A DNA stretch of 64,000 bases from Hyphomicrobiales bacterium (GTDB lineage: Bacteria > Pseudomonadota > Alphaproteobacteria > Rhizobiales > JAJFHB01), in the NCBI GenBank assembly GCA_021775755.1, contig JAJFHE010000013.1:48950-112949 (forward strand), in the 5' to 3' direction. The position numbers and the translations under genes are program-made. Below the pieces are notes generated by a model that worked only from the letters and a program-made list of their open reading frames with translations, did not search any database and was not told where the DNA came from. Of the stretch, positions 20,868-55,401 are shown piece by piece. Every line of letters starts with the position of its first letter. Position 1 is the stretch's first letter.

Positions 20868-22517
20868 TTACGCTGCCGCCTGGCGGCAGTAGCAGGAGGC
20901 CTTGATGACGACCTCGGCACGGGCGGCGGCGAGGTCGAGGCGCTGTTTGATGATCGGCGCTTCGACGGTTTCGCCGCGGCGCGCGAGGCATTCGTGCAGA
21001 CCGTGCAGGCTCCAGACGTTTTCGGGGTGCTGACATGCCCGCGACAGTGAACCGTCGAGGCCGAGATCGGCGCGGTAGACGGCTTCGGCCTCTTCGGCGC
21101 GATCCTGTTCAAGGAGCAATGCGCCTAACGCGTGGCGCGCCGGTTGCATCCAGCCCCAGGGTTCGTCATAGGGCAGCGAGTCATCGAGCCCGACCGATTT
21201 GCGCAAATGGTCGAACGCCACATCGAAATTGCCGCGCCGGTACTCAAGCTCGCCATTGAGCATTTCGGTCGCGACTTCAAGCAGGTCGTTCACCGTGTTG
21301 TTGTGCACCCGGCGGCTCTTTGGAACGTTTGCCTTCGCTTCGAGGAACGCTTCGCGCTCGCGTTCTGCATCCTCGATATTGCCAAGCGCGGAGTGCGCAA
21401 CGGTCTTGGCGTAGAGGATCATCGCGGTGGTAGCGCAATAGAGTTCGCGGTCCCCGGGCAGATCCTGATCGATGATGTCCTGCCACTTGCCGAAGCGGAT
21501 GAGGACATGCTGCTTCATCGGCAAGTAGCCCTCCAGAAAGTCGGCCATGGGGGGCGAGGGGATCTGCAAGAGCTCTTCCGGCGTCGTGTCGATCAGTTCC
21601 TGCGCGGCTTCGATTGCCGGCGTGTACTGGCCGAGGAACATGGCGCCGTAGATCGCGAAATGATGATCGTGCACGCGATACATCGAATAGACATTCAGGG
21701 CGCCGGCGCGCTCCAGGAACCGGCGGTCGGCGGCAATGGCCTTCTGGTTGTAAACGACGACGTCGCGATAGTGGCCGCACAGGACGTCGATGTGTGTCGG
21801 CATGTGAATGAGATGGCCGGCATCGGGCACCAGATCGCGCAGCTTGTCACCGGCACGCAGGGCACGTTGGGGAAAGGGCGACATTTCCATCAGGTGGACG
21901 TAGAGGTGCAGCAGTCCCGGATGCGACCATGAGGCTTCGATGTCACGCATTGCGGCTTCAAGAATCTCGACCGCTTCCTCGGTACCCGCGCCTTCCGCGA
22001 CGCCGCCGGTCTGCAGATCCCACATTTTCCACGGCGTGCGGTTCATGATCGCCTCTGCGAAGACGGTGGTGATTTCAAGGTCCTGCGGGTGCGCCTTAAA
22101 TACTTCGCGCATCGCGTCTGCATAGTCGTCATTCCACAGCGACATGTCTTCGATCGGATCTCGTGCGGGATAGCGCGCCGGCAAGGCCTCGATCAAGGCA
22201 CGCTCGACCGGCGTGATGCCCTCTACGCAAGCAAGCGCCTGCTCCATGGCATCGTATGCCAGCACCAGCGCTTTTTCCCGGCCAGCCGGGTCATAGAGGT
22301 GCCATGGCAAATTGTAGTTTGGACCAGCCGCGTAGGAGATGCCCCAGTGGGCCATGGCGCAGTCCGGGTCCGCCTCCAGTGCCTTTTGAAAACACTCAAT
22401 CGCTTCGCCGTGGTTATAGGCGTAGGTCCAGTTGAGACCGCGATCGAACCAGAGTTGGGCTTCGGGAGGCTTTGCCGTTATTGGTCGTTTGAATGCACCA
22501 AGATCGTAATAGTCCAT
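20868..22517 (-). CDS. Tetratricopeptide-repeat protein (~550 aa)
   Basis: Start placed at MDYYDLGAFKRP (RBS GGAGG 7 nt upstream) inside ORF 20868..22787; multiple TPR-like helical hairpins (WFDRGLNWTYAYNHGEAIECFQKALEADPDCAMAHWG...). Confidence 0.6.
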   Translation of the reverse strand: MDYYDLGAFKRPITAKPPEAQLWFDRGLNWTYAYNHGEAIECFQKALEADPDCAMAHWGISYAAGPNYNLPWHLYDPAGREKALVLAYDAMEQALACVEGITPVERALIEALPARYPARDPIEDMSLWNDDYADAMREVFKAHPQDLEITTVFAEAIMNRTPWKMWDLQTGGVAEGAGTEEAVEILEAAMRDIEASWSHPGLLHLYVHLMEMSPFPQRALRAGDKLRDLVPDAGHLIHMPTHIDVLCGHYRDVVVYNQKAIAADRRFLERAGALNVYSMYRVHDHHFAIYGAMFLGQYTPAIEAAQELIDTTPEELLQIPSPPMADFLEGYLPMKQHVLIRFGKWQDIIDQDLPGDRELYCATTAMILYAKTVAHSALGNIEDAEREREAFLEAKANVPKSRRVHNNTVNDLLEVATEMLNGELEYRRGNFDVAFDHLRKSVGLDDSLPYDEPWGWMQPARHALGALLLEQDRAEEAEAVYRADLGLDGSLSRACQHPENVWSLHGLHECLARRGETVEAPIIKQRLDLAAARAEVVIKASCYCRQAAA

Positions 22518-22680
22518 GAGGCCTCCTGCGATGGGTCGTGCGCCCGGCAATCGGGTACCGCCAAGTCTGACAGATCGTGCGATCTCACGGAACCCTTCGG
22601 GTATTCCCAGACTCGGCTCGACACCGCTCACCTGTATTCCTAGTCTGCGACCCCCGGGCAGCCGGCAAGGACGGAGCGGT

Positions 22681-22902
22681 ATGTGGTCGAAAAATGCACT
22701 GACTGAACGATTGAACCTGGACTGGCCAATCCTGCAGGCGCCGATGGGGGAACTGACGACGCCCGCGCTGGCCGCCGCCGTCGCCAATGCGGGCGGTGTT
22801 GGCGGCCTGGGAATGTGGGGATTTTCGGGTGAAGAGGCCGAGCGGCGTGTCGCCGGTTTTCGTCAGCAGAGCGGGGGATGTCTTAACGTCAATGCTGAGT
22901 AA
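22681..22902 (+). pseudogene. Truncated nitronate monooxygenase (NMO) N-terminal fragment, ~73 codons
   Basis: MWSKNALTERLNLDWPILQAPMGELTTPALAAAVANAGGVGGLGMWGF = canonical NMO N-terminus; frame terminates at 22902 exactly where GC content collapses. Confidence 0.6.
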
Positions 22903-23151
22903 CTCATATGTTCCTTTTTGCGATTGAGTGCATTGGACGGCAGTCGTATTACCTCTTGGCCAAAGACAGTAAACGCCGAACACCCGAGAAATATATCCGT
23001 ATACGGATGTACACGGCATTAGAATTCAAATAAAAGTGAAATGTAGAATGGTTCTCTTGAGTTAATTTATTTGATTTAGCGCTGCTTTCTCGCAATCATA
23101 ATATCTGTTGATACATTGTTGATTGTAAAAATTTGGAAAGGCAGAACGTTT

Positions 23152-24627
23152 ATGGCCATATCAGACATTCACGATCAAATGGAGCAGGCCTGCCAAGATC
23201 AGTTTGGCTTCGGTGTTCGGTATGTTTTTCTTCTGGAATCATTTGCGTATTCAATAAGTCAGATGATTGCGCTTGGCGTACATCAAAATTGGCCAACCAC
23301 CCGAAAAGAAATATTTCTGAGCTTTGACGTAGACCCGGCTAATGTCGCTCTCGCAGAAAACGTTGCGACCTCGAATTTCGATGTTGACGCAAAGTATGAT
23401 GTAATCCTTCATCTCCCCAACGTTCCAACCGACGTGATCACACAATACACTGTGCAGTTTAGTGGTGGAACGGCAACCGTCGGTATCGACCCCACCATTG
23501 ACAACAAACTGTCACTTAACTTGGCTGATCGAGGTATCTATAACTGGAAAGCTCAGAGTAGACCATCCGACTTTCTTGACAAAATTAAAGCCGCCGGGTT
23601 TGTTGACGACGATGGCAATCCAGATGAACAGGAATTTCTGAGATTTGAGTTCGCTCTATTTACTTTCCAGCCAGACTATTTCTTGAGCGGCCTTTTAGAT
23701 CTTATCCAGTTCCCAGTTGTGCGGGAAGGTCTGAAGACCTTCCGCCTTGGATCTCCATTGAATATAACATTTACTCCTGACTATATTGCAGTGCATTCTG
23801 AAAATATTGAGTACGAAGATAGGCCTTGCACTTTTGGAATATCTTCAGCATCGCAAATATCGGTTCTGGTATCAGATGAGGAGATCAAGAAAAACACAAA
23901 TACCGTGTTTTATTCTGAAGAAATGGAGAATGTTGCAGTTACATTTGATGAAAAACTCGATGAAATGAGAACATTTATAAATGAAGTAAATGTAAATATA
24001 GGTCCATTTGGAGAATATCCAATTGTGTATTACTATCGGAAAAATATTTTGTATGATTACACTTTTGGAAAAGTGAAACCTTCCGTTACTTATTCGGACA
24101 GGAATCGCTTTGGACCATTTAGGTGGTACTATGCGATTACTGCCGCACTGTCCCACCTAGCAATTGCATTTCAACAAATCTCTCCGACAACGGCAAAATT
24201 AACACTGGATGTTCCGCTCGAAATGTTCGGGCAAGCCGGTGCCAGCATCCGCCTAGGCTGTGTTACTTACAATGTACTGAATGTGGCGTGTGAAGGGTCG
24301 GTGAATCCACTAACTGTTGAGGCAGAGGGTGGGGTAAATATGAACACACATGAGGTGTTCTTGTCGACCAAGCTGGCCAACGCCAATCCGCGACTCAGAT
24401 GGAGTACAGGTTTCGGGTTTCCTTTTGATCAGATTGCGACGAAATTAATCAATTGGATATTGAGGAAGGAATTTCGTAAGTTCATTGGCCGGCCTACGGA
24501 TATCCTACGAGTACCGCTCGCTGATATATCCGATGTCGCTATATCCTCGGACCTTCAGTTTGGCGCCCTGGGGTCTGATGCAAAAACTGATTCACTGTTA
24601 ATCGGTTTGCATTTGGACCGGGGCTAA
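23152..24627 (+). CDS. AT-rich orphan protein of unknown function (491 aa), horizontally acquired
   Basis: Uninterrupted 1.5 kb ORF in ~40% GC DNA in a ~63% GC genome; ATG 23152 has GGAAAGG RBS; no signal peptide, TM helix or recognisable catalytic motif. Confidence 0.65.
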   Translation: MAISDIHDQMEQACQDQFGFGVRYVFLLESFAYSISQMIALGVHQNWPTTRKEIFLSFDVDPANVALAENVATSNFDVDAKYDVILHLPNVPTDVITQYTVQFSGGTATVGIDPTIDNKLSLNLADRGIYNWKAQSRPSDFLDKIKAAGFVDDDGNPDEQEFLRFEFALFTFQPDYFLSGLLDLIQFPVVREGLKTFRLGSPLNITFTPDYIAVHSENIEYEDRPCTFGISSASQISVLVSDEEIKKNTNTVFYSEEMENVAVTFDEKLDEMRTFINEVNVNIGPFGEYPIVYYYRKNILYDYTFGKVKPSVTYSDRNRFGPFRWYYAITAALSHLAIAFQQISPTTAKLTLDVPLEMFGQAGASIRLGCVTYNVLNVACEGSVNPLTVEAEGGVNMNTHEVFLSTKLANANPRLRWSTGFGFPFDQIATKLINWILRKEFRKFIGRPTDILRVPLADISDVAISSDLQFGALGSDAKTDSLLIGLHLDRG

Positions 24628-24717
24628 CTTTCAGGCCTCGGAGTTAGTTAGGGTCAAAACCCAATCAAAGTGTTGAATTAAAGTAGCAAATCAGATTCAA
24701 AGCCTGCAATCAACGGA

Positions 24718-24945
24718 TTGAAGGCTTATATGGCTCGTTTGTTCTGGCTTTCAGATGCCCAATGGGCTGTCATTGAACCGCATCTGCCCAAAAACCAGCC
24801 GGGCGCACGGCGCGTCGATGACCGGCGTGTGATCTCCGGGATCATTCATGTCTTCAAGACGGGTTGCCGCTGGTGCGATTGTGCCGATGAGTACGTCCAT
24901 CGACAGCACCTATATCAAGGCACACCGCTCGGCCCATGGCGGTAA
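24718..24945 (+). pseudogene. IS5-family transposase orfA with internal deletion/frameshift
   Basis: Conserved N-terminus then frame divergence (CADEYVHRQHLYQ... vs expected continuation found in another frame). Confidence 0.6.
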
Positions 24946-24951
24946 AGGGGG

Positions 24952-25377
24952 GCGAAAACGCAGGCTATCGGCCCCTCGCGCGGCGGACAAACAACCAAAA
25001 TCCATGCCCTGACAGATGTCATCGGACGCCCCTTCGCCTTCACGCTCACCCCAGGCAACGTCTCAGACACAAGCGCCGCACCCGTTCTGCTGACGGCTTT
25101 GCAGGGGGCACGTTATGTCCTTGGCGATAAGGGATATGATGCTGATGCGCTTCGAAAAATGCTACGGGCTTCGAACACGGTTCCCGTCATACCCGGCCGG
25201 CGCAATCGCAAACGAACAATCGTGTATGACAAGCGTCGATACCGTGACCGTCATCTCATCGAAAACGCCTGCTGCCGCCTCAAAGACTTCCGCCGCGTCG
25301 CAACCCGTTATGACAAACTCGCCAGGATCTTCCTGTCAGCTGTCGCACTGGCAACCCTCGTCGCTTCCTGGATATGA
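24952..25377 (+). CDS. IS5-family transposase orfB (DDE domain portion)
   Basis: GDKGYD...IENACCRLKDFRRVATRYDKLARIF motif. Confidence 0.6.
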   Translation, partial: AKTQAIGPSRGGQTTKIHALTDVIGRPFAFTLTPGNVSDTSAAPVLLTALQGARYVLGDKGYDADALRKMLRASNTVPVIPGRRNRKRTIVYDKRRYRDRHLIENACCRLKDFRRVATRYDKLARIFLSAVALATLVASWI

Positions 25378-25398
25378 TTGAGTCTGAACCCTAACGGT

Positions 25399-26118
25399 TC
25401 ACTCAAGCTCATATGCATGTGTGCGGATCACACCGCCGAACTGTTCAACTTCGCACAGTATCCGTTCGCGTTTCGGCGCGAGGTTGAAAGGCGGGCGCGT
25501 CAGCACCACGCCGCTCCCGGAGTGGAGCCGGATTGACGGGCCGATAGGCTTGTCCACGTTCGCCGGAAAGTCATCGCCCGACGGCAAGTGTTCCGTGACC
25601 AGGAGATGCTGGAAAGTGCCCCGGAGTTTGCTGACAAATCGTATGATGTCATCGTTGGGTAAATGCTGCAGCACCTGCCGAACAAGCGCGACATCGCCGC
25701 CGGGCAGTTCGTTTTTGACCATGTCCAGGACGCGAAAACTCAGGTTTGCCTGCCGGTACAAGGTTCGATTTTCATCGATCAGGCCGGCGACCAGATCGCA
25801 GGCAAGATATGAAGACGAAAATTCTACGAGTTGTGCACCAACATTGAAGTCGCCGCAGCCGAGATCGACGACGTCGGGCTTCTTGCCGAGCACCCTGATA
25901 AATTCCTGCACCGCAGTCACATAGGTGTCGACGATCGCCGGGTCGTGGGAGCCACCTCCGGAGAAATACTCTCTGTTGTCGGTGTGAGCAGGGCCCCAGG
26001 CGTCATCGCGATAGATTTTCTCGAATACCTGCCGGCTGTTCAAACCGGAATAACCTGCCTCACGGCGAAACAGGCGGTTTAATTTCCGGCTTGCAAAAGC
26101 TTTGAGGCGGTCAGGCAT
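25399..26118 (-). CDS. Class I SAM-dependent methyltransferase
   Basis: VVDLGCGDFNVG motif I, acidic motif II ACDL, motif IV LRQVLQHL; start placed at MPDRLKAF inside ORF 25399..26268. Confidence 0.6.
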   Translation of the reverse strand: MPDRLKAFASRKLNRLFRREAGYSGLNSRQVFEKIYRDDAWGPAHTDNREYFSGGGSHDPAIVDTYVTAVQEFIRVLGKKPDVVDLGCGDFNVGAQLVEFSSSYLACDLVAGLIDENRTLYRQANLSFRVLDMVKNELPGGDVALVRQVLQHLPNDDIIRFVSKLRGTFQHLLVTEHLPSGDDFPANVDKPIGPSIRLHSGSGVVLTRPPFNLAPKRERILCEVEQFGGVIRTHAYELE

Positions 26119-26587
26119 CGGCGGATTGACTGTTCGTTTGGGCAATTTTCCCACCAAGGTTTCGGCCGGTCTGCATGTGCGCTGGCGCATTCGCGTGGTG
26201 AGCACGCGTGTTGACATCGCAGCAAGTGTCACCTGTCGGGTTTTATGGATTGGCGGTTCGAAGCACAATGCCCGAACTCGATAATTTCAAGAGAAATAGA
26301 TTGCCTGACCGGGCTCTCTGACGGCGAAACCCGATGCGCTTTCATGATTGTTTCTCAGCCCGCACAACGCGTGTCTGGAATGCACTGTCTTCCCCGCGAA
26401 GGATGTCTTGATGTGATGAGAATGCCATTGAAAATCTTCGCCCATACTCTTTGCGTGCAAAGTAAAATGAACTGATTTCAGGGGGATTCAACCGAACAAT
26501 GTAGTTGCGAGGCGCGTTCCCCTATGGAACATTGAGAACGGGCAATGAGTACAGTATGGGGATTAAATTGAGCATCATTGTCGCGAA

Positions 26588-26864
26588 GTGCAGCCAAGAG
26601 CAACGAGCTTGGTGCTGGCGTCGGCCGCCCTGTTTGCAGTGCTGTTGTATGTGCTTGACCAGCGCATCAAACATTGGCGGTTGATGCCATCTTATCTGCT
26701 GGCGACAATCATCATTTTCTATGCGGTCCCGTCCGTAACCGGCACATCTATCACGATGGCCGAAAGGTTGGGGCCCGCGCAAGGGCAGCATTCAGGGGTT
26801 CAGGCAATTGCTGCACGGATCTGGCTGTCCAGTGAGTTAGTCGTCCGAATGGAGCGCAGCTTAA
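26588..26864 (+). pseudogene. N-terminal two-TM membrane segment, probably the frameshifted 5' part of the downstream coiled-coil gene
   Basis: LVLASAALFAVLLYVL and YLLATIIIFYAVPSV hydrophobic helices in frame 2; coiled-coil repeats continue in frame 0 immediately after a TAA at 26862; tandem ACAGATACAGAC at the junction. Confidence 0.35.
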
Positions 26865-27419
26865 GCAAGGTACACGAAGATCAATACAGATACAGACGAG
26901 CTACAGGCCGAACAGACCGAAATCCGGCATCTGAAAGACACGGTTGTCGCGCTGCGGACAAAGATGGAGTCTCTGCAGTTCGACGCCCAGGAAAATGTGC
27001 AGCGTGCTGTTGCCGACAGCAACGATGAGATTATACAGCTTCGCGAGACGGTCAGCGCCTTGCGCGAGGAGTTGGATGATCTAAACCACGAAAAAACCCG
27101 TGCCGTGCAGGAGGTTCTCGCGAGCCATCGCGACGAAATTGAACAGCTCACAAACACCGCACAAGCGCTGCGCGACGAACTGGACAACCTGAACCACGAG
27201 AAGAACACGGCGGTCCAGGAGATGTTGCAGCAAAGCCGTGAGGAAACGGGGCAGCTGCGCGAAACCGCCCAGGCCGTTCGAGATGAGTTGGATGCCGTCA
27301 AGTTCAGCTATGAGGGCAGGATTGAAGAGTTAGAGCGTACGGCGCGGGAGGACCGCAGGCAGTTGCACGAAACGATCACCAAGCTGAGGGAGGAACTGGA
27401 GGGGAAACATGGCAAGTGA
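26865..27419 (+). CDS. Coiled-coil repeat protein (three ~38-aa repeats EIxQLxxTAQALRDELDxLNHEKxxAVQE), translationally coupled to downstream cyclase
   Basis: Repeat-rich heptad sequence; first ATG only at 26964 although repeat-like coding starts right after stop at 26862; stop overlaps start of 27409 gene by 11 nt. Confidence 0.5.
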   Translation, partial: ARYTKINTDTDELQAEQTEIRHLKDTVVALRTKMESLQFDAQENVQRAVADSNDEIIQLRETVSALREELDDLNHEKTRAVQEVLASHRDEIEQLTNTAQALRDELDNLNHEKNTAVQEMLQQSREETGQLRETAQAVRDELDAVKFSYEGRIEELERTAREDRRQLHETITKLREELEGKHGK

Positions 27420-29706
27420 CGTGCTGGACGACCCGGCCAAGATACAATCCAAGCGTTTGGCGGAGACACGCAAGAGCCTGCGAAAGGCAGAAATGCTGCT
27501 GGAAGCTTCGCGCAAAATTGCGTCGTTCGATAACCTGGACGATGCGCTGGAGGCGCTTGTCGAGCTTATCTCGAAGGAATTGGACGCCGAACGCAGCAGC
27601 CTGTTTCTGAACGATACCCTGACCGGGGAGCTTTACTCGCGCATTGCGCAGAAAACCCTGTCGCGTGAAATCCGTATGTTGAACAACGTTGGAATCGCCG
27701 GTGCGGTTTTCCAAAGCGGCACCGGTGAAATCATTCCCGACCCCTATGCGGACGCACGCTTCAATTCAGATGTCGATGAGCAAACCGGTTTCACCACCCG
27801 GTCCATCGTTTGTGCGCCGGTGAAAACGGCGGCGGGTGAAGTGATCGGTGTTACCCAGGCACTGAACAAGAAAAAGGGGAAATTCGGACAAGACGATCTG
27901 GAGCTTCTCGAAGCGATTGCGGCGCAAGCCGCCGTAACCCTGCAGAGCAAGCAGTTTGTTGAGCGGATGGAGAAGAACCGCGCACAGGAGATTGAGTTCC
28001 TCAACATTGTTTCAGACGTCACATCCGAACTGGAACTTGGCAGCTTGCTCACCAAAGTCATGGGTGAGGCGACGCGCATGCTGAATGCTGAGCGCTCGAC
28101 CCTGTTTCTCAACGATGAAAAGACGAACGAGCTGTTTTCGCGTGTAGCCATGGGCGATGCATTGGGCGAGATCCGGCTGCCCAATCATTTGGGCATAGCG
28201 GGCGCGGTCTTCACGTCGGGACAGACGGTCAGCATTCCATATGCCTATGCGGACCTTCGGTTCAATCCGGCATTCGACAAGCAGACCGGGTTCTTCACCC
28301 GCTCCATCCTGTGTGTTCCGGTGACGAACAAAGACGGCAAGATGATCGGCGTCACGCAGGTTCTGAACAAGAAAACCGGTTCGTTCACGGACGACGATGA
28401 GGCGCGGCTTCGGGCCTTTACCGCCCAGGTCTCCATTGCTCTGGAAAACGCCAAATTGTTCGAAGATGTCCAGAGCATGAAAAACTACAATGAGAGCATG
28501 CTGGAGAGCATGTCGAACGGCGTCATCACGATGGACGAGGAAGGAAAAATCGTCACCTGCAACGGCGCCGGCATGCGCATCATGAACGTGGAACCGGCCG
28601 ACATTCTGGGCAAGCCGGCAGTCGAGTTCTTCGTAAACAAAAACGCATGGCTGCCGGACCGCATCAAAAAGGTCGAGGAACGCGGGGAAGCGGACGTGCT
28701 CATGGACGTTGAACTGGAGTTCGGCGGCGAAACAATTTCGGCCAACATCAACGTGCTGCCTCTCCTTGGCGAGAAGGCGAAGAAGCTCGGTTCGATGGTA
28801 ATGATCGAAGATATTTCATCCGAAAAACGGATGAAGTCGACCATGTCCCGCTACATCGATCCAGGCATTGCCGACCAGCTTTTGGCAGGCAGCGATGCGG
28901 AGAACTTTCTGGGTGGAAAAAGCAGCGAAATCACGGTGCTTTTCTCCGATGTTCGCAGCTTCACAACTCTAACCGAGTCGCTGGGCGCGCAAGGCACGGT
29001 GGAGATGTTGAACGAGTATTTCACCATCATGGTCGACTGCATTACCCGTGAGGGCGGCATGCTCGACAAGTTCATCGGCGACGCCATCATGGCGGGCTTC
29101 GGCATCCCGATATCCTATGACGACGATGAGGACCGCGCTGTCCGGGCGGCCATCGCCATGATTGTGGAACTTTGGGAGTGGAACAAGCACCGCGAGGCAC
29201 AAAACAAGCTGGCGATCGACCACGGTGTGGGGCTTAACACGGGGCTTGTCGTCTCCGGTAACATCGGTTCGCCGAAACGCATGGACTATACGATGATAGG
29301 CGATGGAGTGAACCTTGCCGCACGGCTGGAGTCGGCTTGCAAGCAATACTCGGCCCGCATTTTGATCAGCGAATTCACGCGCGCGAAGCTGAAGGGGACT
29401 TACCGGTTGCGCGACGTTGACATGGTGGTGGTGAAGGGCAAGACCGAGCCGGTCAAGATTTTTGAAGTGCTCGATTATCACACGCCGGAAACCTTTCCAA
29501 ACCTGATGGACGGCGTTGGATATTTCAACGATGCGATCCAGCATTATCGCGCCGGTGAGTGGGATAAATCCGTTGCAAAGTTTTCCGAGGCCCTGACGGC
29601 TAATCCGGGCGACGAACTGGTAAATACCTATATCGCCCGCTGCGAACAGCTGCGGGCTAGTCCGCCAAAAGACTGGGACGGTGTCTGGGTTATGACTTCG
29701 AAATAA
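27409..29706 (+). CDS. GAF-GAF-PAS sensor class III adenylate/guanylate cyclase with C-terminal TPR-like tail
   Basis: Two GAF-like blocks (…FLNDTLTGELYSR…GIAGAVFQSG…CAPV and …FLNDEKTNELFSR…GIAGAVFTSG…CVPV), PAS (MLESMSNGVITMDEEGKIVTCN), cyclase motifs (ITVLFSDVRSFTTL…KFIGDAIMAGFG…GLNTGLVVSGNIGS…DYTMIGDGVNLAARLE). Confidence 0.8.
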   Translation: MASDVLDDPAKIQSKRLAETRKSLRKAEMLLEASRKIASFDNLDDALEALVELISKELDAERSSLFLNDTLTGELYSRIAQKTLSREIRMLNNVGIAGAVFQSGTGEIIPDPYADARFNSDVDEQTGFTTRSIVCAPVKTAAGEVIGVTQALNKKKGKFGQDDLELLEAIAAQAAVTLQSKQFVERMEKNRAQEIEFLNIVSDVTSELELGSLLTKVMGEATRMLNAERSTLFLNDEKTNELFSRVAMGDALGEIRLPNHLGIAGAVFTSGQTVSIPYAYADLRFNPAFDKQTGFFTRSILCVPVTNKDGKMIGVTQVLNKKTGSFTDDDEARLRAFTAQVSIALENAKLFEDVQSMKNYNESMLESMSNGVITMDEEGKIVTCNGAGMRIMNVEPADILGKPAVEFFVNKNAWLPDRIKKVEERGEADVLMDVELEFGGETISANINVLPLLGEKAKKLGSMVMIEDISSEKRMKSTMSRYIDPGIADQLLAGSDAENFLGGKSSEITVLFSDVRSFTTLTESLGAQGTVEMLNEYFTIMVDCITREGGMLDKFIGDAIMAGFGIPISYDDDEDRAVRAAIAMIVELWEWNKHREAQNKLAIDHGVGLNTGLVVSGNIGSPKRMDYTMIGDGVNLAARLESACKQYSARILISEFTRAKLKGTYRLRDVDMVVVKGKTEPVKIFEVLDYHTPETFPNLMDGVGYFNDAIQHYRAGEWDKSVAKFSEALTANPGDELVNTYIARCEQLRASPPKDWDGVWVMTSK

Positions 29707-29751
29707 GGCCCGCAACGGCAATGTCGACTTCTTCGGTTTTTCGGAACCGCT

Positions 29752-30519
29752 CTAGAAGGCGATGTTTGAAACGAGCCGGCAGGCCTTGCATTGGAAATCG
29801 AATATCGGAGCAATCGGTTCGTCCAGTAGCCATGCGCCGCCGCAGGACGGGCAGGGGCGTTTGCTTTCATTGTCGTGTGTCCGTCGTGTGCCGCTTGCGC
29901 GGTAGAGATAGTAATACGTTGGAGTGCCGGTGCGTTCCTCGATCTCCCGGCAAAGCTCACGCCCTCGCCGCGCCAGCGAGCTCTCATGATCCGACATCTG
30001 CGCAATGCCGAACCGTTCGCCGGTACGGCAGTTCATCTGCAGTGTGTCACAGGCCTTGTAATCGTCGTTCCAGATCAACAGTTCGTAGTGTTCATCGTGG
30101 TCCGACGCCGGCAGGGAGTAAAGCGGGATGACGCCGAAGCAGTCGAGGCACTTTACCGGCGGTGCCGACGACAGGTAGTCCGTCTTCAGGACAAAGGCGG
30201 AGCTTTTTTTGCAGGCGCAAGGGCACCAGCCTTCGACGTCCCTTCCCTTGAGTACAAGAGAGGGCTTCCCGACGCCTTGTGATTTCAGTTCCCGAAGCGC
30301 CTTTTTTACCCACTTGTTTGCATGACGTTTGTCGAGTGAGCGTTTCTCGGGAATGGTCAGCCATGCGCGCAACCGGCCTTTGGATGTGAGATGAAGGTCG
30401 GCGAAGGTGTTTGCCTGGCCACTTTTTACCCAGGCTCCCAGCAGGGTGTATATGGCTTGCTCGGCCTTTTTCCGACCGCCCTTTTCGGGAATGTTGAATG
30501 ACACTTGCGCGAGATACAT
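29752..30519 (-). CDS. Cys-rich Zn-ribbon protein (possibly DUF2310-like)
   Basis: 255 aa with paired Cys clusters (CPCAC, CLDC, CPSCGGAW, CKAC); basic N-terminal half; family assignment from memory only. Confidence 0.45.
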   Translation of the reverse strand: MYLAQVSFNIPEKGGRKKAEQAIYTLLGAWVKSGQANTFADLHLTSKGRLRAWLTIPEKRSLDKRHANKWVKKALRELKSQGVGKPSLVLKGRDVEGWCPCACKKSSAFVLKTDYLSSAPPVKCLDCFGVIPLYSLPASDHDEHYELLIWNDDYKACDTLQMNCRTGERFGIAQMSDHESSLARRGRELCREIEERTGTPTYYYLYRASGTRRTHDNESKRPCPSCGGAWLLDEPIAPIFDFQCKACRLVSNIAF

Positions 30520-30839: not shown

Positions 30840-30912
30840 GTGCGCATAGCTCAATTGGTAGAGCTCTGGCCTCTAAAGCCAGTGGGTGCGGGTTCGATTC
30901 CCGCTGCTACTA
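30840..30912 (+). tRNA. tRNA-like element (tRNA-Trp-like body, anticodon loop CUCUAAA = CUA; acceptor stem not base-paired) - probable tRNA pseudogene / integration-site remnant
   Basis: Canonical D-arm TAGCTCAATTGGTAGAGC, anticodon stem CTGGC/GCCAG, T-arm GCGGGTTCGATTCCCGC; but 5' GTGCGCA vs 3' TGCTACT cannot pair; no CCA. Confidence 0.45.
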
Positions 30913-30993
30913 CGCGATATGCCCAGAGGTTGGGCGACAGATTGCAAATCTGTTGGCAGATAGCTTGTGAGGTTCGATTCCTCAATCGCTCCA
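30913..30993 (+). tRNA. Second tRNA-like element abutting the first (GCA anticodon, 14-nt variable region, T-arm, 3' ...TCCA; acceptor pairs only 5/7)
   Basis: D-arm GCCCAGAGGTTGGGC, anticodon arm ACAGA-TTGCAAA-TCTGT, T-arm TGAGGTTCGATTCCTCA, 3' ATCGCTCCA; 5' ACGCGAT mismatched at first two pairs. Confidence 0.35.
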
Positions 30994-51377: not shown

Positions 51378-51722
51378 ATGCGGGTCATATTGAGAATTAT
51401 GTTGTGCGTGGCGTTCGCCGTGCTTGGTTTCGCGGGCGTGGCATTCGTGACGGCATTGATGTTTGTGCCCGCTGGCAGCGGGCTTGCGGGCCCCGCCATC
51501 GTCGTCGGTTACGGCGGATTGGGTGGGCTTGTTGCGGCTGGGATTGCGGTCATCCTCGGCTTTCGGCTCGCGCCGAAGGCCCTGATGTCGGTTGCCATTG
51601 TGTCATCCGCTCTGGCGCTTTTATGTATTGCGGGTCTGACGGTGCGTGCAGTGATGTTGCATGCCGATGACGTGCGCCCGCAAACCCCGGAAACGCCGCC
51701 CGTGACGGCTCCCGTTGAATAA
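51378..51722 (+). CDS. Small hydrophobic membrane protein (hypothetical)
   Basis: Three predicted TM helices; start uncertain (51336 or 51378). Confidence 0.35.
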   Translation: MRVILRIMLCVAFAVLGFAGVAFVTALMFVPAGSGLAGPAIVVGYGGLGGLVAAGIAVILGFRLAPKALMSVAIVSSALALLCIAGLTVRAVMLHADDVRPQTPETPPVTAPVE

Positions 51723-51724
51723 AC

Positions 51725-52678
51725 TTACCGCGCCGCGCTTGGCGCACGCTTGCGGCGTGCACCGGTGAGCGCCTGATAGACGATGCCCGACATCAATATG
51801 GCGCCGCCGACCAGGGTGAGCGTTTCGGGCACTTCGGCCACCGCGAGCCACACCCAGACAGGCGCCAGCAAAGGTTCGGACAGCGACAAAAGGGTGATTT
51901 CGGTTGCCGACAGGGTGCGTGCGCCGATGGTGTAGAGGCTGAGGCCGAGGCCCAACTGGCCGAAGCCCATGATTGCGCAGATGGCGATATCGCGCCACGG
52001 CAGGGTAAGCTCCGCAACGCCCCAGGTTTCGCGCCACGGCATCGGCAAAAGCAGGCAGACGAAGCTCACTGCGGCACCGAAGAGGCCGGCATAGAAGATC
52101 GCCGGCATCATGTCGACATCGGCGCCCCAGCGCAGCATGACGGAAAAGGCCGCCGCCGCGAACGCAGCATAGAGCGCCAGTGTATTGCCGATCATGCCTC
52201 CCCCACTGATGCCGTTGACAACCATGACGCAGAGCCCGATGGCCGCCAGGGCCATGGCGACCCAGGTGTGGCCGCGCACCATTTCGCCGAGGATCCACCA
52301 GCCGAGCAGGGCAGCAAAGAACGGCACCGCGGCCAGCATAAATACCGCATTGGCGACGGTTGTGTATTCGAGGGACAGGAGGAAGCTGAAAGACGCGGTG
52401 GCGATGCACAGGCCGCCAATAGCACTCTCGACACCAGCGTTTGCCAGGACCGAGCGTAGACGGCCGCGGTTAAAAAACACAATGGCGATCGAAATCGCAA
52501 CGATCAGGAACAAAGAGCGGAAGAACATGATCTGCAGCGCATCGCCTTCCTCGACGAGACGGAACCACAGACCGCCGGTACTCCACACGATGCCGGCGCA
52601 GAGGACGAGCGCGACCGAGCCCATATAGCCGAGGCTGACGTGCGCGTGCGCACCGTAAGTGGAGGATCGGTCGGTCAT
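51725..52678 (-). CDS. DMT-superfamily (EamA-like) transporter
   Basis: 10 hydrophobic helices, duplicated EamA halves; 317 aa. Confidence 0.75.
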   Translation of the reverse strand: MTDRSSTYGAHAHVSLGYMGSVALVLCAGIVWSTGGLWFRLVEEGDALQIMFFRSLFLIVAISIAIVFFNRGRLRSVLANAGVESAIGGLCIATASFSFLLSLEYTTVANAVFMLAAVPFFAALLGWWILGEMVRGHTWVAMALAAIGLCVMVVNGISGGGMIGNTLALYAAFAAAAFSVMLRWGADVDMMPAIFYAGLFGAAVSFVCLLLPMPWRETWGVAELTLPWRDIAICAIMGFGQLGLGLSLYTIGARTLSATEITLLSLSEPLLAPVWVWLAVAEVPETLTLVGGAILMSGIVYQALTGARRKRAPSAAR

Positions 52679-52793
52679 GCCGCAAGCTTCCTGCCCGGCA
52701 GACGAACTGGCAAATGAATTAAATTCTGAGTCGGCGGGTGGTTCAGCTGCGGGTGCTGTGCGGGGCCTTGCGCGCTCGCCAGGAGCCTGAAGA

Positions 52794-54116
52794 TCAGTTC
52801 GTCCGGCGGTGCCCCACCGGCGGGAAGAACATCATATCGTTCTCTTCCGCCGCGCCGTGACAGTCGTGACAGAACTGCATGCTGGTTGAATTCTTGCCGC
52901 CCGTGATGCCGTAGAGTGTTCCGTCGGGCATGACCATGGCATACCGCCAGTCGCTGGTTGCAGGATTAAAGCCGCTCGTCATTCTTTCCATTGTTAACAG
53001 CGGGCCGTGTGCAATCGCGCCGCCATCCGTTACTGCGAAACTGTCCATGGCAATCATCGAGCCGATCGGCATGCGCCGTACGTGCTCGAATTGCCGGTAA
53101 GTGTTTTGCGCAATCCGGTTGGCAAAGACGTTGACATACCGCCCACCATGCGTTGCCGAAACGAAGGGTGCAGCCGAGATGGCGGGCCATTGGGAGTAGC
53201 GTTTTGCTGCAAGGATCCCGGCTTTTGAGTAGTTTCCGGCAAGTGCGGAAGCTATGCGCGCATAGATGTCGGCGGGCGTCTGCTGGTCCGAATTTGGCGC
53301 AGAGGCCGGCGGTTCCGGTGCAGGTTGCTGACCTGACGTTGGGGAGGACGGTGAAACAGTTGCCGTTGTGAACGAAAACTCCGTCGTAAGCAGGCTTTCT
53401 TCCATCGGGGTCTGCTGGCCTCCGGTCTGGCTGTGCACGCTCACGCGAACACGTTTGAACACCTGTTCGATCGTCAGGCCCGGTTCGCGGAGCGCCAGAG
53501 CAAGCGCGGAGGCATAAGGGGAATTGGGTCCATTGCCGTCCTGGGCGACGCTACCAGGCTCGGCGGAATACGCAACGAGCGAGCCGTGCAGACTTTCTAT
53601 GCGGGCAAGACCGCGGGTGCCGCCGCGTGTATCTGTGTAAGGATTGTCCCGGCAGGCATCGAGAATGACGATGTTGAGCTCGTTGGCGGCTTCTTCCATC
53701 TGAGCCAGGACATCGGAAACCTCGATGGCTTCGTGCTTAAGATCGACTGCGTGTTCTATCTGTGTGCCAAGCGGAATGAGATAATTTTGTCCGCGGTATT
53801 GGGCGCCGTGCCCTGCGTAGTAAAATAGCCCGACTGCATCGCGCCCGGCAGCGCGCAGTGCCTGCCCGAACCTGCTCACCGCGCGGCCCATGGCACGCTC
53901 ATCCACATCGAAGGCGGTGACGACGTCGAAGCCGACATCGCGCAGGGCGCTGGCCATGAGGCGTGCATCGTTGCCCGGATTCCTGAGACGCGCGATGTTC
54001 GTGTAGTCCGAGTTGCCGATCACCAGCGCTATGCGGGCCGCGGCCAGCGCGTTGTCCGGTGTCGCGGAGATCAATAGAGCCACCGCAAAGATCGGAGTAA
54101 GCAGGTGCCGCAACAT
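52794..54116 (-). CDS. Secreted caspase-family (peptidase C14) domain protein fused to a C-terminal cytochrome-P460-like haem-binding domain
   Basis: Signal peptide; caspase His/Cys dyad contexts YYAGHG and DACRDN; Pro/Ser-rich linker; C-terminal DWRYAMVMPDGTLYGITGG...QFCHDCHG (CxxCH) with P460-like pattern. Confidence 0.65.
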   Translation of the reverse strand: MLRHLLTPIFAVALLISATPDNALAAARIALVIGNSDYTNIARLRNPGNDARLMASALRDVGFDVVTAFDVDERAMGRAVSRFGQALRAAGRDAVGLFYYAGHGAQYRGQNYLIPLGTQIEHAVDLKHEAIEVSDVLAQMEEAANELNIVILDACRDNPYTDTRGGTRGLARIESLHGSLVAYSAEPGSVAQDGNGPNSPYASALALALREPGLTIEQVFKRVRVSVHSQTGGQQTPMEESLLTTEFSFTTATVSPSSPTSGQQPAPEPPASAPNSDQQTPADIYARIASALAGNYSKAGILAAKRYSQWPAISAAPFVSATHGGRYVNVFANRIAQNTYRQFEHVRRMPIGSMIAMDSFAVTDGGAIAHGPLLTMERMTSGFNPATSDWRYAMVMPDGTLYGITGGKNSTSMQFCHDCHGAAEENDMMFFPPVGHRRTN

Positions 54117-54419
54117 CGGTCGCCTCCGGTGTGAATATTGCGCTCACTATCTATTCGACTGGCATATGTGTCCAATAACAAACAAGTCAGGGCGAAACGT
54201 GCCGTAGCGCCGCCGATTTGCGATGCCAATGTTCTCCGATCCGATGCCGGGCTGAGTGTGTGGCTGGATAGGCTGGTTTGTCAGCACAATACCGTTGTGG
54301 ACAGTCAGCGTGTGATCGGATGTGTTACTTGTTCGATCCGGGTTTGATGACTTGGGCGACGCCGCGCTTAAGGGGCGGCATTGGTCGGCGAAATCGAATT
54401 CAATGATGCTCACAAGTGC

Positions 54420-54560
54420 TAAGGTTTCACAGCCGGTGCATTGCCCGAGCAGCACCGCTCCGATGGTTGAAACGTCGAAGAGAGCCGCAAAGAACGGCAC
54501 CACGGCCAGAATAACCACTGCACTGGCGACGGTCACGCGTCCCTTCCGCCACGCCCTTCC
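54420..54560 (-). pseudogene. Remnant fragment of a DMT/EamA transporter gene
   Basis: ~80% nt identity over ~100 nt to 52280-52440 of the intact DMT gene (VVPFFAALF vs AVPFFAALL). Confidence 0.4.
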
Positions 54561-54994
54561 GCCGCGTTTACAGCGTGCTTCGACACCGCATACCATTTGG
54601 CAGGGAACCCTTGTGAAGCCAAGGGGAAGGGCCAGTCCATGTCCAGATTCAAACTTTGCTCCGGCGCTGCCGCTATTGCCTTCTGTGCGGGAATGCTCAT
54701 GTACCCGGGGCGATGCGAATGCCGCATCAATTTGCGTTGCGGGGTTTGCCGGAGACAAGAAAAAGGAAGAGGTCTGCAGCTGCCATCCCGCATCCGACCT
54801 TTGCAAGTGGGAACGCACCTGCCAGGACAGCACTTTCTATAGCGGCGATCATGCTGAAGAGACGATCGACGCCTGGAAGAGCAACGGTTATGAGGTTTGG
54901 ATTGTCAGAAAGACAAACAGCGCCACCCGGCAACTCTGCCAGCTAGACTGATTGCCCATCGCCGATAGTTCCTGCCTTAGAGAGGACCGGGTTA

Positions 54995-55204
54995 CTACCC
55001 GTTCCATTCCGGCTTGATGACCCAGGCCACGCCTCGGCCCAGAATCGCGCACAAGAGCGCGGCGCCAATGCCGATAAAGCCGAGAAGCATGGTGGTTTCG
55101 TTGTTGTTCACTTGGCCGACAAACAGCAGTCCGGCCGCCGAAACGCCAAAGAGAACCGCTAGCAGCAGCCCCGTCCGGGCGAGAATTCCACATGTTCTGT
55201 TCAT
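54995..55204 (-). CDS. Small two-TM membrane protein (69 aa)
   Basis: LLLAVLFGVSAAGLLFVGQ and LLGFIGIGAALLCAILG helices; start at ATG (RC 55204) inside ORF 54995..55423. Confidence 0.4.
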   Translation of the reverse strand: MNRTCGILARTGLLLAVLFGVSAAGLLFVGQVNNNETTMLLGFIGIGAALLCAILGRGVAWVIKPEWNG

Positions 55205-55333
55205 GCGGCGGAACATGCCAGTGAAGGGGGCGGAGCGCAAGTGCGATGCGACGCGGCGCTCAAAATTCCGATGGCCTGATGGCTCTGGACCTGAACTGTA
55301 ACTGATGATGCTCTGTTTGGACCTGAAGCGCCC

Positions 55334-55370
55334 AAAAAAAGGGCCCGCCTGGCTGAGTGCCGGGCGGGCC
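55334..55370 (-). terminator. Rho-independent terminator of the homocysteine methyltransferase gene
   Basis: GGCCCGCCCGGCA-ctcagc-CAGGCGGGCCC hairpin followed by TTTTTTTGGG on the minus strand. Confidence 0.8.
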
Positions 55371-55401
55371 AAGTACTGGGAACTTTTGGGAGGAAAATCT
55401 G

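Follow-up and report, generated by a model that had tools for sequence, protein, structure and literature searches.

What might a caspase-like protease do with a heme group built into the same polypeptide? The question is raised by one gene in a 64,000-nucleotide stretch of DNA from a Hyphomicrobiales bacterium (GenBank assembly GCA_021775755.1, contig JAJFHE010000013.1, positions 48,950 to 112,949), which is referred to here, at its full length, as the window. The gene encodes a protein with an N-terminal caspase/paracaspase-like domain and a C-terminal heme domain of the fold shared by cytochromes P460 and cytochromes c'-β. We are highly confident of the identity of the two parts, a caspase domain and a c'-β-type heme domain, and the architecture is that of two known domain families in a new combination. 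The caspase plus P460-fold fusion is a singleton in all the data that we searched. The more interesting lead is that the P460-fold module is a portable extracytoplasmic unit, found on cyclases, on TIR domains, and once on a caspase.

Identity of the two domains

The open reading frame (ORF) of the fusion gene is uninterrupted, with 440 codons and a stop codon, and its product is identical to the public protein P0001. A preliminary description of this DNA, made from the sequence alone, had named a secreted caspase domain joined by a linker to a cytochrome P460-like heme domain, and the motifs that it quoted (YYAGHG, LDACRD, DWRYAMVMPDG from residue 389, and FCHDCH) are all present in the translation. 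The features of the gene are as follows.

54123..54127, minus strand: Shine-Dalgarno sequence GGAGG (sequence reading)
52794..54116, minus strand: complete coding sequence of the caspase-heme fusion (ORF list, Pfam matches to both domains, identity to P0001)
54042..54116, minus strand: predicted Sec signal peptide, residues 1-25 (n-region, hydrophobic core, and AxA site, by eye)
53376..54035, minus strand: Peptidase_C14 domain (caspase/paracaspase-like), residues 28-247 (PF00656, MALT1 match, homologs)
53808..53810, minus strand: codon of catalytic His103, in YYAGHG (MALT1 alignment, homolog invariance)
53652..53654, minus strand: codon of catalytic Cys155, in LDACRD (MALT1 alignment, homolog invariance)
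53277..53375, minus strand: interdomain linker, approximately residues 248-280, Pro/Ser/Gln-rich and Cys-free (translation)
52797..53276, minus strand: heme domain of the cytochrome P460/c'-β fold, residues 281-440 (PF16694, AlphaFold model, Foldseek)
53046..53048, minus strand: codon of Met357, at the position of the P460 cross-link Lys (alignments to 7ead and 7s5o)
52857..52871, minus strand: CHDCH, the CxxCH heme c attachment motif with Cys416, Cys419, and proximal His420 (sequence)

The N terminus, MLRH-LLTPIFAVALLISA-TPDNALA/AAR (the slash marks the cleavage site), was read by eye and has a basic n-region, a hydrophobic core, and an AxA site, so that residues 1 to 25 read as a predicted Sec-type signal peptide with cleavage at ALA/A, in agreement with the secretion proposed earlier. 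The linker that follows the caspase domain is rich in Pro, Ser, and Gln, as had been described, and contains no Cys.

Each half of the protein, in searches with profile hidden Markov models (HMMs), exceeds the gathering threshold of its Pfam family. Peptidase_C14 (PF00656) matches residues 28 to 247 with an E value of 2.2e-40 and 139.2 bits against a cutoff of 21.4, and the match covers positions 2 to 232 of the 233 in the model. The best sequence match of this half in the Protein Data Bank (PDB) is to chains of the paracaspase MALT1 (E=2e-16). His103 and Cys155 align to the His and Cys of the MALT1 motifs YYAGHG and LLDMCRK, which we take to be the catalytic residues His415 and Cys464, and Asp50 and Asp153 align to two MALT1 Asp residues that are presumably D365 and D462 of the S1 pocket. 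The third S1-pocket residue of MALT1, E500, falls outside the aligned region. All four of these residues of the window protein are invariant in an alignment with its 27 closest homologs, in which every one of the 54 invariant caspase columns is kept, and the His/Cys dyad of the preliminary description thus occupies invariant columns. By these residues, the caspase half looks catalytically competent, and it is probably specific for a basic P1 residue; because of the acidic S1 residues Asp50 and Asp153, cleavage would be expected after Arg or Lys. The score for the NCBIfam model of the EACC1-associated type of caspase (NF047832) is 62.1 bits and does not reach the cutoff of 140. The family to which this half belongs is very large, with 7183 matches, and the listed ones are 42 to 63% identical to it over the caspase half. 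Among the best 120 of them, the C-terminal partners include PG_binding_1, SH3_3, Sel1, FGE-sulfatase, ankyrin, TPR, MORN, DUF4189, and OmpA domains, and the aligned homologs, which are alphaproteobacterial and 53 to 63% identical, have a common plan of signal peptide, caspase, linker, and C-terminal module.

The C-terminal half matches Cytochrome_P460 (PF16694) over residues 305 to 430 (E=5.7e-9, 36.9 bits against a cutoff of 27, model positions 2 to 124 of 125). An AlphaFold (AF2) model of this domain, built from an alignment of 85 sequences, has a predicted local distance difference test (pLDDT) score of 96.4 and a predicted template modeling (pTM) score of 0.91. When the model was compared with the PDB by Foldseek, the only matches with a probability of 1.00 were cytochromes c'-β (7s5o, 6hih, and derivatives) and cytochromes P460 (2je2 and 8gar), with template modeling scores of up to 0.68, and the next match had a probability of 0.25. 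The top match was 7s5o, the cytochrome c'-β of Nitrosomonas europaea, at 18% identity. The modeled fold is thereby confirmed as the five-stranded antiparallel β-sheet of P460 and c'-β proteins, as the preliminary description had anticipated. The CxxCH motif reads C416-H-D-C419-H420 in the window protein and is present in 329 of approximately 335 complete family domains; its conservation, like the fold, bears out what had been proposed, and the motif would make Cys416 and Cys419 the points of heme c attachment and His420 the proximal ligand. The window protein keeps all 15 invariant columns of the heme domain alignment, and it also keeps His323 (98% in the family), Arg326 (94%), Met376 (99%), Glu377 (90%), Trp390 (100%), and Asp427 (97%). 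It departs from the family consensus at three positions, N330V (Asn in 85%), K357M, and K378R. The position of the distal carboxylate, which is Glu96 in the N. europaea cytochrome P460 (NeP460), falls on Glu377 in the profile alignment to 7ead, on Thr375 in the single-sequence alignment to 7ead, and on Gly382 in the alignments to 7s5o. An invariant THGGR motif, which contains His323 and Arg326, lies at the place expected for the capping residue, but this place is at the edge of the alignments or outside them; Arg326 is possibly the equivalent of the capping residue Arg46 of the N. europaea cytochrome c'-β.

Replacement of the cross-link lysine

In cytochromes P460, a cross-link joins a Lys residue to the γ-meso carbon of the heme. 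According to a 2025 review (PMC11928373), this heme-Lys cross-link defines the cytochromes P460, and its lack defines the cytochromes c'-β; the equivalent residues are Lys70 in NeP460, Met79 in the N. europaea cytochrome c'-β (NeCP-β, 7s5o), and Phe61 in TtCP-β (7ead) (Table 2 of PMC11928373). In cytochromes c'-β, according to the literature, the cross-link Lys gives way to a hydrophobic residue (Phe, Met, Leu, Val, or Ile). In the F61K mutant of McCP-β, peroxide-dependent formation of a cross-link is reported. Met357 of the window protein, in the sequence IAMDSF, aligns with Phe61 of 7ead in both single-sequence and profile alignments, and the consensus Lys that the subfamily has at this position, in LAKDSF, aligns with Met79 of 7s5o. 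Of the subfamily we compared 346 distinct domains, and position 357 is Lys in 326 of them (94%) and Met in 7. The alphaproteobacterial subfamily as a whole is thus predicted to be of the P460 type, and the heme domain of the window protein, because its cross-link Lys is replaced by Met357, is by definition of the c'-β type (Met) and not a cytochrome P460 in the strict sense. The assignment to P460 in the preliminary description has to be amended to this extent.

The replacement also bears on the suggestion that the protease might be gated by hydroxylamine. All cross-link-deficient P460s are reported in the literature to be inactive in hydroxylamine oxidation, and the Met-type NeCP-β does not oxidize NH2OH and turns over H2O2 via a compound I species. 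Given Met357 and the inactivity of the cross-link-deficient P460s, oxidation of hydroxylamine by the window domain is unlikely, and hydroxylamine gating is disfavored.

The cross-link Lys does not vary alone. Position 330 is Asn in 281 of 317 Lys-bearing domains (89%) and in 3 of 18 domains that lack the Lys (17%), an association with a Fisher p value of 4e-11 when phylogeny is ignored. Of the seven Met variants, none has Asn at this position, and four, the window protein among them, have Val. The nearest relatives of the window heme domain, which are 52 to 61% identical to it, all have Lys at position 357, and the other Met variants are only 31 to 43% identical to the window domain. Because the near relatives all retain Lys and the other Met variants are distant, the paired change from Lys to Met and from Asn to Val must have arisen more than once. 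The covariation of the two positions suggests that the Asn takes part in formation of the cross-link or in P460 chemistry, and the combination of K357M and N330V looks like a selected change of heme chemistry, a functional switch, which would fit the data better than drift or decay. In the literature on P460 and c'-β proteins that we read, we met no discussion of a role for the Asn that lies 27 residues upstream of the cross-link Lys.

Relatives of the heme module

A scan of one genome per species, in which the window's own genome is not among the species representatives, yielded 313 loci with the heme module, almost all of them in Alphaproteobacteria (Hyphomicrobiales, Rhodospirillales, Kiloniellales, and Sneathiellales), and the best match to the window heme domain was 57% identical. 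At the loci that we fetched, we classed 95 heme domain ORFs by architecture and found 72 with a Cys-rich repeat, 16 with only a signal peptide or transmembrane segment, 3 with a cyclase, 1 of the TIR type, 3 cut by contig ends, and none with a caspase. The repeat-type proteins consist of a signal peptide, a (CNPCNPCAA[KK])n repeat of overlapping CxxC motifs that runs for 150 to 450 residues, and then the heme domain. Their ORFs have approximately 415 to 450 codons; examples are L001:5182-6459, L002:422-1669, and a 450-residue ORF that starts at position 4119 of L084, and the same type is found in L085, L088, L091, and most of L004 to L083. Neither Pfam nor NCBIfam recognizes this repeat, and remnants of it were looked for in the window and are absent. 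Public gene calls drop the repeat, so that what is left is annotated as a "cytochrome P460 family" protein of approximately 160 residues with no signal peptide. The view that the closest heme relatives are standalone proteins of 150 to 165 residues with no signal peptide was considered and rejected, as the contigs show that these gene calls are shortened.

A smaller set of relatives carries the module together with effector domains. In an exhaustive search with the HMM of the heme domain, P0268 and P0382 combine TIR_2 with the heme module, P0278 combines a class III adenylate/guanylate cyclase with it, and P0264 combines it with a LysM domain. At the genome loci, the cyclase type is represented by L026:490-1821 and L039:5212-6495, both recognized by Pfam, and by L079:5191-6495, recognized by BLAST only, and the TIR_2 type is represented by L046:1391-3313. 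In the TIR and cyclase relatives, an effector with no signal peptide comes first, next a single hydrophobic helix, and last the heme module. Because the effector lacks a signal peptide and precedes a single hydrophobic helix, it would be cytoplasmic and the heme domain extracytoplasmic, and the predicted layout is thus that of a receptor-type signaling protein. A receptor-like architecture of TIR or cyclase, transmembrane helix, and P460-fold domain is not described in the literature that we searched.

Several further features of these loci were observed. In 22 of the 82 loci with enough flanking sequence, the gene immediately downstream of the P460-like one encodes an uncharacterized secreted protein of approximately 150 to 160 residues (for example, L001:6519-6986, L002:1752-2237, and L003:716-1165); the protein has no Pfam match and only weak matches to the NCBIfam "hypothetical" model PRK06518, and a DDAH/ADI-like gene comes next in L002 and L003. 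This accessory gene was looked for in the window and is absent. Tandem pairs of P460-like genes approximately 100 to 250 nucleotides apart occur in L022, L062, and L068, and there is another pair in L055 (4636-5352 and 5455-6465); in the tandem pairs, a long repeat-type form has beside it a short one, which carries just a signal peptide and an N-terminal motif "...RHF[RK]V..PA.L". One relative, P0373 (496 residues), has lost the proximal His (CKDCS in place of CxxCH), has Thr in place of the cross-link Lys, and has gained a Pro-rich C-terminal extension of approximately 270 residues. It is probably a heme-free derivative.

Occurrence of the fusion and support for its junction

The preliminary description had stated that this architecture was not known to be characterized and had proposed that its conservation be surveyed among homologs. 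From the caspase side, PF16694 is present in none of the other 119 proteins among the best 120 of the 7183 matches. From the heme side, a profile search of a database of 5.8 billion clusters found no PF00656 among the best 120 of 699 matches, and the exhaustive HMM search of 1.84 billion representatives, in which the window protein is its own representative, gave 1009 matches (138 with an E value of 1e-30 or lower) and no other caspase-bearing protein among those of the best 150 that were long enough for both domains. The 90 relative loci that we surveyed, of 91 fetched (L001 to L091 except L084), encode no protein with both a caspase and a P460 domain, and a junction-spanning query against metagenome contigs returned only repeat-type P460-like genes. 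The 90% identity cluster of the fusion protein has one member, on one contig. No second caspase plus P460 protein was therefore found in the survey. Full-text literature searches found nothing on P460 in combination with a caspase, a sensor domain, an adenylate cyclase, or PF16694, and thus no account of the architecture. The structures listed in the 2025 review are all of single-domain proteins, and in a term search of its text neither fusions nor multidomain members came up (PMC11928373). The text of a 2012 survey of prokaryotic caspase architectures names no cytochrome or heme partner.

Part of the fusion gene is present in a second assembly. An independent Logan contig (L092, from run SRR15505515) is 100% identical to positions 51648 to 53319 of the window and reproduces the second half of the linker; it starts inside the linker, short of the caspase domain, so that the junction itself rests on one assembly. 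At least 14 in-frame linker residues stand ahead of its heme domain (17 ahead of the first modeled helix), and in this part the contig has neither a start or stop codon nor a signal peptide of its own. Exact matches to the fusion protein and to the upstream S-methyltransferase were looked for in an assembly index and not found, and look-ups with neighboring sequence gave only short Logan contigs, none of which spans the caspase junction. In a search for sequence repeats, neither tandem nor dispersed ones turned up at the junction between the caspase and heme domains.

Genomic context

The Shine-Dalgarno sequence of the fusion gene lies 6 nucleotides 5' of the ATG. The guanine-plus-cytosine (GC) content of the gene is near that of the neighboring genes, and its GC content at third codon positions (GC3) is toward the bottom of the range that they span. 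The codon usage of the caspase half correlates with that of the neighbors at r=0.86, and that of the P460 half correlates more weakly, at r=0.58. With its ribosome-binding sequence, intact frame, and broadly neighbor-like composition and codon use, the gene looks expressed.

The neighbors of the fusion gene encode an EamA transporter, a DUF1194 protein, a homocysteine S-methyltransferase, an MFS transporter, and catabolic enzymes, and near the gene there are no genes for N-oxide metabolism (nitrification or denitrification), no cytochrome maturation genes, and no obvious operon partner. The EamA gene, of the drug/metabolite transporter (DMT) type, is intact and flanks the fusion gene at 51725..52678. 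A remnant of such a gene lies on the 5' side of the fusion gene.

54405..54533, minus strand: short, diverged remnant of an EamA/DMT transporter gene, given for context only (direct repeat and tblastn)

The remnant includes a 92-nucleotide direct repeat with 73% identity to positions 52269 to 52360, and a tblastn alignment over approximately 54405 to 54533 covers 43 amino acids at 42% identity (E=4e-5). The intact and fragmentary DMT copies reported earlier are thus both real; the fragment is short and diverged, and it is weak evidence for the recent local rearrangement that had been read from it. The 1.3 kb on the 5' side of the fusion gene (54117 to 55401), in which the remnant lies, has a lower GC content (0.574) and contains no clean gene. 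By eye, the same region appears to contain a frameshifted gene for a small Cys-rich secreted protein on the plus strand (ORFs 54597..54842 and 54322..54951, in different frames). Elsewhere in the window, positions 22000 to 30000 have a GC content of 0.50 to 0.56, compared with approximately 0.61 in the rest, and adjoin a tRNA-Cys gene at 30912 to 30992; this block is possibly a genomic island. Its genes include those of a GAF-GAF-PAS-cyclase protein (27409-29706), a DUF2310 Zn-ribbon protein (29752-30519), and a methyltransferase (25399-26268), along with a 503-residue ORF with no Pfam match (23116-24627).

A working model and its alternatives

The model that we favor, with a little less than even confidence, is one in which the window protein works in the periplasm as a protease, and a heme domain that responds to a ligand or to redox state controls its activity or assembly. 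The Sec signal peptide would take the fusion protein to the periplasm, where heme would be joined to the two Cys residues of the CxxCH motif, with its His as the proximal ligand. Since the cross-link Lys is replaced by Met357, an ordinary c-heme of the c'-β-Met type is expected, and with it the binding of NO, CO, or similar small ligands or a reaction with peroxide. The ligand or redox state of the heme would then alter the dimerization or packing of the fusion protein, and this change would turn the protease on or off. We infer export, Ccm-dependent heme attachment, and P1 specificity from homology, and the heme domain may respond to NO, CO, peroxide, or redox state. The coupling of heme state to protease activity is drawn from comparative architecture, and we consider it possible but not probable. 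Paracaspases, class III cyclases, and TIR domains are activated by dimerization or oligomerization. Most of the solved P460 and c'-β structures are homodimers (PMC11928373). Together with the receptor layout of the TIR and cyclase relatives, these properties led us to a model of a dimerizing sensor, and the TIR and cyclase fusions would support the idea of a gated protease indirectly.

Several observations weigh against this model. NeCP-β, which is the closest Met-type structure, is possibly a monomer (PMC11928373). Both domains of the window protein are predicted to lie on the same side of the membrane, unlike those of the TIR and cyclase fusions, and the commonest partner of the heme module is the Cys-rich repeat and not an effector (72 of 95 ORFs). 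The assignment of distal-pocket residues is ambiguous, as the 7ead and 7s5o alignments disagree in the loop, and a full-length single-sequence model, at a pLDDT of 31.9, gives no usable geometry between the domains. The neighboring genes give no hint of function. Selection for the fusion cannot be demonstrated because there is a single such protein in the data searched. The binding domains that most of the closest caspases carry (such as PG_binding_1, SH3_3, and Sel1) suit targeting as well as sensing.

This last point belongs to a different explanation, which we regard as rather unlikely, in which the heme domain is a module for targeting, anchoring, or partner binding that would hold a constitutively regulated periplasmic protease close to a given partner or substrate, or in which the protein merely tethers two independent activities, such as a heme that reacts with peroxide or NO beside a protease. 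The sister caspases carry mostly binding-type C-terminal domains (PG_binding_1, SH3_3, Sel1, LysM, etc.), and protein-protein interaction was the commonest added function in the 2012 survey of prokaryotic caspase homologs. The P460-like module itself is attached to LysM in P0264 and mostly follows a long repeat that is possibly a stalk. A heme site, however, would be a costly means of adhesion, yet the CxxCH motif is conserved in approximately 99% of the family and His323, Arg326, and Glu377 in 90 to 98%. Targeting also makes it hard to account for the recurrence of architectures in which a cyclase or TIR domain is followed by a transmembrane helix and the module, and the coordinated change of K357M and N330V points to selection on heme chemistry. 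Improbable, in our judgment, is an origin of the fusion as an accident in one lineage, which would have little if any selected function and would now be drifting, or as a chimera of metagenome assembly. An accident would mean that some deletion or rearrangement had brought a caspase gene together with the heme domain of a repeat-type P460 gene. Such an event would be consistent with a one-member cluster on one contig and no second fusion among the proteins, loci, and metagenome contigs searched, with the low GC content and DMT remnant of the upstream 1.3 kb, and with change at three strongly conserved positions (N330V, K357M, and K378R); the start of L092 within the linker, which leaves the caspase junction without confirmation, would suit a chimera as well. 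An accident is harder to reconcile with a 440-codon open frame behind a good Shine-Dalgarno sequence, with two domains that are complete at their natural boundaries and keep all 54 caspase and 15 heme domain invariant columns, and with the recurrence of the Lys-to-Met and Asn-to-Val changes in independent lineages. Divergence from the nearest relatives is also much the same in the two halves (roughly 60%), which is not the picture of a fresh wreck. As for a chimera, there is no repeat at the junction to cause misassembly, and the heme domain of L092 follows in-frame linker residues with no start, stop, or signal peptide of its own.

The functional reading most at odds with the data is that of a true cytochrome P460, which would oxidize hydroxylamine or produce NO and so couple N-oxide chemistry to proteolysis, a stronger version of the gating suggested in the preliminary description. 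The Pfam Cytochrome_P460 match, the 94% frequency of Lys in the subfamily, and the conserved Glu377, which occupies the distal carboxylate position in one alignment, would agree with it. We consider it very improbable, given Met357 at the cross-link position, the inactivity of all cross-link-deficient P460s tested, the failure of NeCP-β to oxidize NH2OH, the lack of nitrification or denitrification genes nearby, and the ambiguity of the carboxylate, which is Gly in the 7s5o alignment. Two other connections were considered and set aside. A link to anti-phage defense was dropped, as PADLOC gives only generic matches to caspase, TIR, and PycC-cyclase domains and no match at the level of a system. 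An analogy to the apoptosome, in which cytochrome c activates a caspase, was ruled out, as the fold of the heme domain is unrelated and the fusion is covalent and in the periplasm.

Comparison with known systems and significance

Both halves of the window protein have well-studied counterparts. MALT1 and the bacterial orthocaspases and metacaspases (MEROPS C14, clan CD) share with it the His/Cys dyad, two aligned Asp residues of S1, and the whole of the Pfam C14 model; the window protein differs in having a signal peptide and a heme domain partner, in lacking a death domain or Ig domain, and in lacking a p10-type autoprocessing context of known type. Closer to it are the secreted caspases of Alphaproteobacteria, with 53 to 63% identical caspase domains and the same overall plan, although none of the 119 other best matches has PF16694. 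With NeCP-β, the heme half has in common the P460/c'-β β-sheet fold, a C-terminal CxxCH motif, and Met at the cross-link position. NeCP-β, however, is a standalone soluble protein of approximately 19 kDa, whereas the window domain is 18% identical to it, has additional helices at its N terminus, and is joined to a protease; the characterized cytochromes c'-β in general are small, standalone, soluble periplasmic cytochromes, and in the window protein the domain forms the C-terminal portion of a 440-residue fusion. The cytochromes P460 of N. europaea (2je2 and 2je3) and Methylococcus capsulatus (6hiu) share the fold, the Pfam family, and the CxxCH motif, and the subfamily of the window protein mostly keeps their Lys, but the heme-Lys cross-link cannot form in the window protein, given Met357. 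In nitrifiers and methanotrophs, cytochromes P460 occur in the periplasm as standalone enzymes, whereas the window protein is an alphaproteobacterial fusion with no N-oxide genes nearby.

Periplasmic c-type hemes are known as sensors, for example in the heme-c PAS domains of Geobacter chemoreceptors. The relatives of the heme module resemble such sensors in their predicted position outside the transmembrane helix of cyclase and TIR proteins; they differ in having the β-sheet of P460/c'-β in place of PAS, and in the window protein the output domain would share a compartment with the heme. The P460/c'-β fold is unique to those two families according to the 2025 review (PMC11928373). We speculate, while considering the idea doubtful as a whole, that this fold also serves as a modular extracytoplasmic heme sensor in Alphaproteobacteria that rules enzymes activated by dimerization or oligomerization (class III cyclases and TIR domains on the other side of the membrane and, in the window, a caspase within the periplasm), that the window protein would be the first heme-gated bacterial caspase, responsive to NO, CO, O2, peroxide, or redox state, and that the changes from Lys to Met and from Asn to Val would tune sensing.

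Work on cytochromes P460 and c'-β has dealt with standalone proteins only, chiefly with their part in hydroxylamine and NO chemistry and in N2O emission. The pair of Met357 and Val330 provides a natural experiment on the purpose of the heme-Lys cross-link. The triggers of bacterial caspase homologs are almost wholly unknown, and a built-in heme domain would give one of them a concrete input signal that can be tested. If the module is a sensor on a protease, on cyclases, and on TIR proteins, it would represent a new class of heme-based signaling, and hundreds of alphaproteobacterial genes now annotated as "P460 family" would then mean something other than the nitrification role that is usually read from them in metagenomic surveys.

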